Origin: Massalongia carnosa
Lineage: Eukaryota
Reading direction: 5' to 3'
DNA length: 64,000 nucleotides
NCBI GenBank assembly: GCA_965645245.1
Contig: OZ287067.1
Span: 3,472,001-3,536,000, forward strand
The notes under the pieces were generated by a model. It had not been told where the DNA came from. It did not search any database and saw nothing but the letters and a program-made list of their open reading frames with translations. A program made the translations under genes and the position numbers. Positions 3,501 to 6,252 of the stretch are shown one piece after another. How positions within the stretch are numbered: the first letter of the stretch is position 1; each line of letters begins with the position of its first letter.

Positions 3501-4782
3501 TTTTCTAGCGCTGTTCGCCGACGATAATAACGAGGATGAAGATGGCTATCTCAAATTCGAATCTGCCCTATCGGCTGGTGCTTCTTCATTTGAAAGAAAC
3601 ATACCCGAGCCTAAGTCTTACAAGGAAGCAGTAAATGATCCGGTGTGGGGGGAACTATGGAAAGAAGCAGTGAACACCGAGATCAAGGCGCTCATCGGTA
3701 ATAAGACTTGGAAAGAAGTTGTTCCACCTCCCAAAACGAACATCGTCACCTGCAAATGGGTGTTTAAAGTAAAAACCAACCTCGATGGCTCATTGGAGAA
3801 GTTTAAAGCAAGATTAGTCGCCCGTGGGTTTACTCAAAAATACGGCATCGACTATGAGGACACTTTCGCCCCCACGGTAAGATCAGATACCCTACGTGCA
3901 GTGCTTGCCATAGTAGCGATGGAAAACCTGGAATGTCATCAAGTGGACGTGAATAATGCATTTACCCAATCAACCTTGAAAGATGTCATTTACATGACCG
4001 CACCGGAAGGAGTAAACGTTGCCCCTGGTAGAGTTCTTCAGATTCTGCAAAGTCTGTACGGTTTAAAGCAGTCCGCCAGAGAATGGAATAGCCGCTGTAC
4101 AAATGAGCTGACCAAACTAGGCTTCATTCAATGCTCATCTGACCCATGCCTATTCACTCATCCTAAAAAGGGAATCGTCATATTCATGCACGTAGATGAC
4201 CTGGTGATCGCCTCCAAAATGATGAAAGAGATCGATTGGTTCAAGAAAGAGTTCAATGCTGCCGTTAGCATCAAGGACCTAGGAGAAGTGTCGAAGGTTC
4301 TGGGCATACGAGTAACCAGAGATCGGAAAAATCGAACTCTTCGAATGGACCAGACGCATTATCTCAAAGATGTGATGGAGAGAACACATATGAGCGCTGA
4401 CAAACATAGGCCTACCGAAATTCCAATGAACGGCTATGATTCATTTTTTTTTATTTATTCATTAAGCGTATGCATCCTTAGGATATGACGCTGTGACTGC
4501 TATTTATGTACATAAACAACAGTCCGGAAGTGGAAAACTGGCCCCCAGGGTAAAACCACTCCCTTTTATTCCATATTGAACGCAACGAGATCGTTCTTCT
4601 ACCACGCGGTGCATACACCCAGATATTCAAGCGCTAGGAATCCTATAGACCCGATGAACTAGACAGTGTATCTCCACACGTTCGACGAACATTCTCTCTC
4701 TTTAACCGTTTTGGCTCAATAGATGATAGACTGGCCATGATCGAGGGCAGATCGTGGTGTCGTATAAATGAAGATGTGAAAA

Positions 4783-5104
4783 TGTGGCCATTCCGAATGA
4801 ATGGGCTTTTTCGATGAGGTGAGAGGCTTCCGCCTGGGGGGTGTGGCCATTCCGACTGAATGGACTTTTTCGATGAGGTGAAAGGCTTCCGCCTGGGGGG
4901 TGTGGCCATTCCGACTGAATGGGCTTTTTCGATGAGGTGAAAGGCTTCCGCCTGGGGGGTGTGGCCATTCCGACTGAATGGGCTTTTTCGATGAGGTGAA
5001 AGGCTTCCGCCTGGGGGGTGTGGCCATTCCGACTGAATGGACTTTTTCGATGAGGTGAAAGGCTTCCGCCTGAGGGGTGTGGCCATTCCGAATGAATGGG
5101 CTTT
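4783..5104 (-). repeat. 59-bp tandem repeat (5 full copies plus 1 partial) inside the retroposon
   Basis: TGTGGCCATTCCG recurs at 4783, 4842, 4901, 4960, 5019 and 5078. Confidence 0.95.
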
Positions 5105-5185
5105 GTATGCCTTCGAAGTGATGAATGATCAGTAGAGACGTTGATCTTTCAAACGGCCACCGAGGTGGGCTTCAGCGTTGGCGAT

Positions 5186-5257
5186 GATCAGATATTGGCC
5201 ACCTCCGAGGAGGTGTTGATAGCCTGCACCACGTAGAGGTTTCTGACCTAGCAGGCC
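5186..5257 (-). ncRNA. HDV-like self-cleaving ribozyme at the 5' end of the retroposon
   Basis: Minus strand reads GGCCUGC(P1) UA GGUCAGAA(P2) ACC(P3) UCUACGU(L3) GGU(P3') GCAGGCU(P1', G1.U wobble) AUCAA CACCUC-CUCG-GAGGUG(P4) GCCAA(J4/2) UAUCUGAUC(P2'). G1 abuts the TSD. Confidence 0.85.
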
Positions 5258-6252
5258 GCTATGATTCATTGCGACCGGCTGGAAAAGATGATAAGCGCAT
5301 AGATCAAAGAGAATATCAGCAAATTGTTGGAAGCCTGATGTACGCGGCAATTCATACGCGGCCAGATATAGCTTTTGCTCTTGGAAGGCTAAGCCAATAT
5401 CTCAGTGATCCAGCTGCTCATCACGGTCATGCACTAAAGACGCTGCTTAGATACGTTCGGTCCACCATTGACATCGGTATACTGTATGGGGCTGGGGGGA
5501 ATCATGGCCAAGGCCTCATTGGGTATTCCGATTCAGACTACGCAGCTGATAGGCTCGAAAGAAAATCGATCTTGGGATACGTGTACATGCTAGGGGGAGG
5601 GCCTATATCGTGGATGAGCAGAAAGCAAAAGTCGGTTGCTACGTCTACAACGGAGGCAGAATACATGGCCTTATCAACTTGTGCTAAGGAGGGTTTATGG
5701 CTCGTTCAGCTGATGAAAGACATAGGCTTCGAGAAATATTTCAGTCATAACGTCAATATTCGTGAGAACTTGACGCATCAAGCTGACTCCCCGATGCGGT
5801 TAAAAGGAGATAATCAAGCCGCTATCCAACTGGCATAAGATGCTCACATTCATGATAGATCTAAGCATATCGACGTTGCCTATCATCACATTCGGGACCT
5901 GCACAAGCGAAATCGAATTCAGGTCGAGTACATACCCAGCGGAGAGATGATTGCCGACGGCCTAACCAAGCCTCTAAATAAGCCCATCTTCAATCGGTTC
6001 ATTAGTCAATTGGGACTGCAAAAAATGGAAAGAGTAAGGTAGTATCGCACCGCAGGGGGACTGTTGAATGGCGGTTGCGATTATGGTTATAATGGCTTGT
6101 TGGGCTCACTGCGTGGATAGCGGGTAGTCTAATCTTCTCTAGGAAGGTTTTAGGTTTAGCGTGCTTTGCCCTTTGGTGAAAAGTCTGCTCTTTTCCTTTC
6201 AGATAGCTATATAGTCAATGCGATTACCTGCAACCAGAGTCTCCTTTTAACT

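Follow-up and report, generated by a model that had tools for sequence, protein, structure and literature searches.

An 812-bp insert in a 64,000-nt stretch of Massalongia carnosa DNA (contig OZ287067.1, positions 3,472,001 to 3,536,000; hereafter the window, numbered from its first base) represents, in a fungus, a type of element that is already known, namely the non-autonomous retroposon headed by a hepatitis delta virus (HDV)-like ribozyme. The insert had been singled out by an earlier reading of the bare sequence, to which we refer as the original prediction. Our analysis leaves us with good, though not full, confidence that this is a genuine ribozyme-headed retroposon, in which cleavage is predicted to occur exactly in front of the first base of the element. 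In addition, the element offers a role for HDV variants of fungi to which no function has been assigned and a testable explanation for the ‘SINE-like’ elements of powdery mildews (SINE, short interspersed element).

The insert is a non-coding retroposon with boundaries fixed to the single base

The insert spans positions 4446–5257, is read on the minus strand and is flanked by a perfect duplication of its target site (13 of 13 bp), which reads GCTATGATTCATT on the plus strand and is located at 5258–5270 on the 5' side and at 4433–4445 on the 3' side of the element. It lies antisense within the pol frame of a Copia-type long terminal repeat (LTR) retrotransposon (1147–5838, plus strand; RVT_2, rve, SH3_retrovirus, Pol_BBD and gag_pre-integrs), which is broken by the insertion. 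A paralogous Copia copy in the window carries the empty target site at 27349–27361 (minus strand). Blast matches of the two flanks meet at this site, with the left flank extending to 27352 at 79.7% identity and the right flank starting from 27361 at 75.9% identity. Deletion of the insert together with one copy of the duplication in silico yielded flanks that match the paralog at 27361–27349 gaplessly and a continuous host frame (...MNGYDSLRPAGKDD..., 1289 aa with one stop). The empty site was also found in contigs of the public runs X1, X4 and X5 (four, three and three pieces, respectively), whose agreement with the left flank of the window is 0.96–0.98. The 13-bp sequence is present as a single copy in the paralog as well as in these contigs. 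Paralog, restored frame and empty-site contigs independently fix the boundaries of the insertion to the single base, and the copy in the window is young. The 812-bp insert, the 13-bp duplication and the A-rich tail named in the original prediction are all confirmed.

In the 5' to 3' direction of the minus strand, the element starts with the ribozyme module (nt 1–72, window 5186–5257), as delimited by Rfam matches, pairing and covariation in relatives. A linker follows (5105–5185), which contains a short hairpin and most of the positions that vary between copies (5147–5174), and leads into a tandem array (4783–5104) of 5.5 copies of a 59-bp unit with 96% matches. The remainder consists of a unique 3' body (4460–4782) and the A-rich tail AATAAATAAAAAAA (4446–4459), which forms the minus-strand 3' end and comes with an AATAAA signal at 4459–4454. 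The 3' body is non-coding, and the three open frames across the insert yielded no Pfam match. No terminal inverted match between the ends of the insert was detectable by eye. Self-blast returned a single inverted match (30 nt, 86.7%, element nt 747–776 versus window 4495–4524), which is located within the 3' body and is not terminal.

Promoters of RNA polymerase III (Pol III) are recognized by their A and B boxes, for which consensus motifs are generally known. Neither box was found in 4446–5257 when up to one mismatch was allowed, in line with what the original prediction had stated. Likewise, the insert contains no tRNA gene, and no match to tRNA, 7SL or 5S RNA was present in Rfam searches of 3500–6500 at E-values up to 10. 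That is, the insert has neither the A/B boxes nor the RNA-gene-derived head that characterize a classical SINE. A second copy of any part of the element was not detected in the window by blastn, by Rfam at E-values up to 5 or by a custom covariance model. Taken together, these features identify the insert as a non-coding retroposon with a target-site duplication and an A-rich tail.

The first 72 nt adopt the topology of HDV ribozymes

Searches against Rfam revealed a match of the 5' end of the element to RF02682 (HDV-F-prausnitzii), which covers 5257–5186 on the minus strand and all 74 model positions (31.4 bits; E-value 0.003 when 3 kb were searched, 0.063 for all 64 kb). The same module matched RF00094 over model positions 1–89 of 89 with 25.9 bits. 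Thus, the covariance-model search that had been suggested with the original prediction returned full-length matches to both models, yet with scores under their curated cut-offs, so that the head is not a called member of either family. For comparison, phage ribozymes located behind tRNA genes (see below) score merely 36.4–44.8 bits on RF02682. A match of this type is unique in 128 kb of searched strand, and its model position 1 coincides with the first base past the duplication.

The helices follow each other in the order P1-P2-P3-P1'-P4-P2', which is the nested double pseudoknot of HDV ribozymes, and all 23 helix pairs form. P1 (5257–5251 with 5227–5221) has seven of seven pairs, including a G1.U37 wobble that supplies the purine-pyrimidine pair at the P1 base beside the cut. 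P2 (5248–5242 with 5192–5186; GGUCAGA/UCUGAUC) is likewise complete with seven pairs, one of them G.U, and constitutes an independent test of the fold since covariance models cannot score the P2 pseudoknot. P3 (5240–5238 with 5230–5228; ACC/GGU, 3/3) is closed by the 7-nt loop L3 (5237–5231, UCUACGU), and P4 (5215–5210 with 5205–5200) forms six of six pairs around a CUCG loop. The core junction reads AUCAACA, and J4/2 starts with the putative catalytic C60 (5198), where the catalytic core needs it. This base falls into the catalytic column of both Rfam models. Folding without pseudoknots recovered P1 and P4 (−26 kcal/mol, z −2.40). The HDV topology proposed for the first 72 nt is therefore reproduced in all its P1–P4 pairs, L3, the junction and the C at 5198. 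The predicted cut, between 5258 and 5257, corresponds exactly to the junction of element and duplication, as had also been proposed.

Directly past the ribozyme, at 5140–5175 (minus strand), we noticed a hairpin CCAC-CUCG-GUGG followed by GCC, which by eye resembles a shortened second P4 with J4/2. Most variants between copies fall into this stretch, and two deletion joints end at 5186.

Copies of the element are dispersed and share one precise 5' end

The element was found in 14 public runs from 10 studies, including a lichen metagenome; no RNA run is among the 14. Contigs of four of these runs (four studies) were aligned to 5105–5420 at a likeness of at least 80%, which covers the 5' 153 nt of the element, and 549, 108, 50 and 9 contig pieces, respectively, were placed. 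Among the 52 loose ends listed at 5255–5262, 34 are located at 5257 and 14 at 5258, while four are spread over 5255, 5259 and 5262. These counts are lower bounds, with 80 more loose ends lying outside those listed. The shift by one base to 5258 is expected for approximately a quarter of the flanks, through chance identity of their first base. The unmatched flanks agree at only 0.39–0.65, and the loose ends therefore represent different insertion sites. Hence, the element is a dispersed multi-copy family with one precise 5' end. The original prediction had spoken of an element family, and this is borne out by the many copies at different sites in four runs. Uniformity of the 5' ends, which had been proposed as a check, came out in favour of the ribozyme, as at least 34 ends coincide exactly with 5257 next to unlike flanks.

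Only two variants are listed inside the ribozyme, both of low share. One (U37C) converts the G1.U37 wobble to G1-C37, and the other (G53A) opens the innermost pair of P4, which closes the loop. No variant at the catalytic C60 is listed among the contigs of the four runs. Just downstream, nine variant rows are located at 5147–5174. However, the low variation of the ribozyme is not proof of selection, because 5105–5146 is equally quiet. Contig depth along the stretch cannot rank parts of the sequence and was not taken as evidence. The 3' edge of the ribozyme is also a point at which copies diverge: it is precisely at 5186 that four contigs of X5 depart from the reference, and the same position is the end of two joints in X1 (5130>5186 and 5146>5186).

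The helices covary in distant relatives, and the head is found on different bodies

To collect relatives, metagenomes were scanned with a pattern that fixed the P3/L3/J1-4 core only; the 3' strand of P1 was left free, and the P1 5' strand, P2 and P4 were outside the pattern. The scan returned ten loci (L001–L010). L003 and L006 lack the helices and were rejected as chance matches; on a custom model they score 24.5 and 19.1 bits as compared to 67.5–83.5 bits for the folded loci, whose members match this model by construction. Four loci (L001, L005, L007 and L010) are phage-like tRNA arrays with an HDV-like ribozyme directly after a tRNA gene, and they share both L3 (UCUACGU) and the AUCAAC junction, letter for letter, with the window ribozyme. 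The remaining loci, L002, L004, L008 and L009, are of the eukaryotic kind.

An alignment of nine sequences, comprising the window sequence, four eukaryote-type and four phage sequences, was used to assess covariation (L010 repeats L005 and is not in the alignment). In its helices, 93.1% of the cells are paired, and 13 of 21 pairs show changes on both sides. Both the covariation score and the paired share were reached by none of 500 shuffles, and slid controls gave 25–47%. The outer four columns of P2 are in the fungal register and phage rows were counted as unpaired there, which brings P2 to 85.7%. The window sequence itself adds compensatory pairs, e.g. A-U at the second P4 pair, where the eight others have U-A. 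Thus, covariation in P1–P4, a further check named with the original prediction, is seen with the eight relatives.

Locus L002 (27–723, minus strand) provides a second example of the arrangement. It contains a 665-bp element (707 down to 43) that starts at G1, ends in (CAT)n and is flanked by a 16-bp duplication, CCCTGTACCTAAAACA; its ribozyme scores 38.7 bits on RF02682. Outside the ribozyme, this element is unrelated to the one in the window. A common 3' end of the two was considered and rejected, as the local score of 24.0 equals that of shuffles (23.98 ± 3.83), and a 12-nt match before the tails (E 4.3) was dismissed on the same question. With L004, L008 and L009, the L002 element has only nt 1–74 in common, beginning exactly at G1. 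In the latter family (L008:2141-3100, L004:1168-1524 and L009:1733 downward), a ribozyme with the same type of core precedes a long tandem array whose period is 24 bp, and the layout of L008, head plus tandem array, matches that of the window element. L004 and L008 have U instead of the catalytic C (GGUUAAGA), whereas L009 retains C; P1 of each of the three contains an A.C mismatch. A target-site duplication was looked for at the L008 element and was not found. The bestrophin gene adjoining this family points weakly to a fungus. The different bodies in L002 and in L004/L008/L009, together with the breakpoints at 5186, indicate that the 72-nt head behaves as a portable cassette.

One might ask whether the resemblance to HDV ribozymes arose by chance in an ordinary retroposon that has no catalytic RNA. 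Scores under the Rfam gathering values and an E-value of 0.063 at the scale of the window are what such a coincidence could look like. Nevertheless, the match goes beyond chance, because its start base was set independently by the first base of the element, the 7-bp P2 that the models do not score is present and the helices covary in relatives. Moreover, L002 shows the same arrangement with different helix sequences, and the rejected loci L003 and L006 fall far below the folded ones on the custom model, with the reservation on its members made above. We therefore consider a chance resemblance very improbable.

Arguments against cleavage and alternative roles of the head

Several observations weigh against a functional ribozyme at the head of a mobile element. 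First, the Rfam scores remain under the gathering cut-offs (31.4 versus 44 bits for RF02682 and 25.9 versus 50 bits for RF00094). Second, P1.1 can form just one pair, U23-A38, as the original prediction had already stated, next to a C22.U39 mismatch; such a weak P1.1 could lower or abolish catalysis. The phage relatives with identical L3 and junction also have one P1.1 pair. Third, covariation within the family is absent, as the ribozyme is near-invariant between copies, and the covariation we observe rests on distant relatives that were picked by a common core motif. Fourth, a search limited to the 64-kb window returned no long interspersed element (LINE) that shares its 5' or its 3' end with the insert. 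Finally, a uniform 5' end would be equally expected from a fixed transcription start.

The last point leads to a different function for the head, which might mainly act as an internal promoter or as a 5' stability element that fixes the start, leaving the HDV-like fold secondary or inactive. The weak P1.1 would fit this idea as well as the uniform 5' ends do, and there are precedents: Pr77 of trypanosomes is promoter and ribozyme at once (PMC3383444), and Eg-R1 of Blumeria is reportedly transcribed like a Pol II gene (PMC6022598). However, covariation of four helices between relatives from phages and fungi is not required of a promoter, nor is conservation of a catalytic C, and the flanks upstream of G1 lack conserved sequence, as evident from their low agreement. 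We consider this reading, a promoter or 5' stability element, unlikely; in a mixed version of it, the head would be both promoter and ribozyme, like Pr77 of L1Tc/NARTc.

A further question concerns the origin of the element rather than the activity of its head. Instead of belonging to a separate SINE-like lineage, it could be an internally deleted LINE that has retained both untranslated ends of its parent, i.e. a short internally deleted element (SIDE). R2 SIDEs originate in this way and keep the parental ribozyme (PMC3414825), and the occurrence of the ribozyme cassette on other bodies in the same runs is compatible with such an origin. On the other hand, the body of the element is largely a 59-bp tandem array, and neither RVT_1 nor an AP-endonuclease family was detected in the 52 of 69 open reading frames (ORFs) of the window that were scanned (at least 110 aa); the remaining 17 overlap scanned ORFs on other frames or the other strand. 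Derivation from a LINE is a serious option, though in our view less likely than not.

A model for the propagation of the element

Our data support the structural part of the original prediction; self-cleavage, read-through transcription and a LINE partner are what we infer. For a ribozyme-headed retroposon, we propose the following course of events. The primary transcript would include flanking sequence upstream of the element and would arise by read-through from outside or, alternatively, from a start that lies a little upstream or inside. As the computed fold suggests, the 5' module may then fold co-transcriptionally into the nested double pseudoknot, in which C60 would promote cleavage 5' of G1. 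Cleavage would remove the flank RNA and generate a transcript that begins at nt 1 of the element with a 5'-OH, and the 3' end would presumably be formed at the AAUAAA signal and the A-rich tail. Subsequently, the endonuclease/reverse transcriptase of an autonomous LINE, acting in trans, could use target-primed reverse transcription to copy this RNA into a staggered nick, which would produce the 13-bp duplication and a full-length copy in which the ribozyme is restored.

Genomic setting of the insertion

The window is rich in transposons. Apart from the Copia-type element that hosts the insert (440–6100), it contains two more elements of this type (25117–30686, minus strand; 44709–49919, plus strand) and a Tc1/mariner-type transposase (35087–36283, minus strand). 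Two of the three Copia elements are paralogs with about 76–80% identity. Several large ORFs have no Pfam match. For a glycosyltransferase-17 gene of the window, the closest atlas clusters are from Ascomycota, and DUF6594 as well as a weak Pkinase_fungal match are consistent with this placement. The fungal host assumed originally can accordingly be specified as an ascomycete. In addition, the tRNA model RF00005 is matched in part (positions 9–63, 33.2 bits) at 9460–9580 on the plus strand. The region has an exact B box at 9560–9570 and an A-box-like site at 9465–9475, and ARAGORN calls no tRNA there; it may be a tRNA pseudogene or else form the head of a SINE of tRNA origin.

Implications for fungal HDV variants and powdery-mildew retroposons

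HDV-type ribozymes are an established route to a precise, promoter-independent 5' end for non-LTR elements of animals and trypanosomes. In the literature searched, we found no link of such ribozymes to fungal retroposons. For fungal HDV ribozymes as such, a catalogue exists and cleavage has been demonstrated: Li and Breaker (2017, PMC5640933) reported 230 variants in 26 fungal species, two of which self-cleave in vitro. They describe ‘widely variable gene associations’, and, as far as the text of that paper goes, no biological role is assigned or proposed; no word beginning with ‘transpos’ occurs in its main text. These variants resemble the ribozyme described here in that they occur in ascomycete genomes, in many copies per genome, and have an extra nucleotide between P2 and P3 (PMC5640933). 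This nucleotide is A17 in the window element and C in L002, L004, L008 and L009. They differ in that their consensus places a C-G pair at the cleavage site and an E-loop within P4 (PMC5640933), whereas the window element has G.U and a plain 6-bp P4. That is, it shows one of the three variant features, the extra P2/P3 nucleotide. Furthermore, variable gene associations contrast with the position at the 5' end of a retroposon in the window.

Elements of a similar build are known from Blumeria graminis. The Eg-R1/BG_Non-LTR elements are SINE-like retroposons of ~670 bp with duplications and AAUAAA, but no Pol III boxes (Nottensteiner 2018, PMC6022598). Transcription of Eg-R1 by Pol II was proposed, with the absence of Pol III boxes noted, and in the text of that report, transcription and exact 5' end of these elements stand without an explanation (PMC6022598). 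According to its supplement, the product of 5' rapid amplification of cDNA ends (5'-RACE) of Eg-R1 ends on base 1 of the consensus, which was printed from 23 duplication-delimited copies (Table S2). As also reported there, similarity among the eight non-LTR families of Blumeria is highest over the first 100 nt, and the initial 88 nt are common to Eg-R1 and NonLTR-5_BG. Neither the report nor its supplement mentions the word ‘ribozyme’.

Inspection of the printed Eg-R1 consensus by eye points to an HDV-like layout with the same numbering as in the window element: P1 (GGGGGAC/GUCCCCU) with G1.U37, P3 (ACC/GGU), a 7-nt L3, a single nucleotide that separates P2 from P3, a junction of the form A-N-N-A-A-C, a long P4, J4/2 with GCCAA and a P2 whose pairing keeps the register. 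In sequence, P1 and P2 are unlike those of the window element, with four P1 pairs changed on both sides. As a by-eye reading of a printed consensus, this layout is a lead and not a result. Eg-R1 was reportedly the subject of an earlier paper by Wei (1996), which we know through its citation by Nottensteiner. Also by eye, the reported ROPIP1 reading frame starts inside the HDV-like stretch of Eg-R1.

These parallels raise the possibility, to which we give somewhat less than even chances, that ribozyme-headed retroposons are a widespread class in ascomycetes, in which an HDV-like module of ~72 nt serves as a portable 5' cassette between otherwise unrelated bodies. If so, the class would take in the lichen-associated family of the window, L002, the L004/L008/L009 family as well as Eg-R1 and the other BG_Non-LTR families, which reportedly make up about a tenth of the Blumeria genome. 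It would explain how Eg-R1 can have one exact 5' end without a Pol III promoter, account for a likeness among the eight Blumeria families that is limited to their first 100 nt, and give a purpose to the 230 ‘orphan’ HDV variants that Li and Breaker described in fungi. The N-terminal half of the reported ROPIP1 peptide would then be read from ribozyme sequence. The window locus joins both lines of work, as it combines an exact duplication and an empty site with a 5' end that is family-wide and equals the predicted ribozyme cut. It thereby provides a directly testable model of how a substantial part of the repeat DNA of certain fungal genomes spreads, and a simple search key for annotation, i.e. 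a ribozyme at position 1 plus a duplication.

Comparison with known ribozyme-headed retroposons

Non-autonomous elements headed by HDV-like ribozymes are established in trypanosomatids, where they are represented by NARTc, RIME and SIDER (PMC3185411, PMC4035085, PMC3383444). Like the element described here, these are non-coding, non-autonomous non-LTR retroposons; their first ~77 nt (Pr77/L1TcRz) are an HDV-like ribozyme that cuts at +1 (PMC3185411), and the 5' cassette is common to different elements (PMC3185411, PMC4035085). Unlike them, the window element resides in a fungus, and no sequence is known to be in common. In animals, a 2019 review locates such ribozymes of LINEs and SINEs ‘in a diverse variety of metazoans’ (PMC6765202), and the R2 SIDEs of Drosophila are a non-autonomous case with an HDV-like ribozyme at the head (Eickbush and Eickbush 2012, PMC3414825). 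R2 SIDEs are likewise short, and they rely on a LINE protein that acts on their 3' end (PMC3414825). However, R2 and its SIDEs are site-specific in the 28S ribosomal DNA and are cut from an rRNA co-transcript, whereas the family described here is dispersed with unlike flanks, and its copy in the window sits inside a Copia element. The best-scoring Rfam model for the window element is that of the drz-Fpra/theta-type ribozymes of bacteria and phages (RF02682; Kienbeck 2024, PMC10879173). The theta-type ribozymes of phages trim the 3' ends of tRNAs in tRNA arrays, whereas the ribozyme of the window heads a eukaryotic retroposon.

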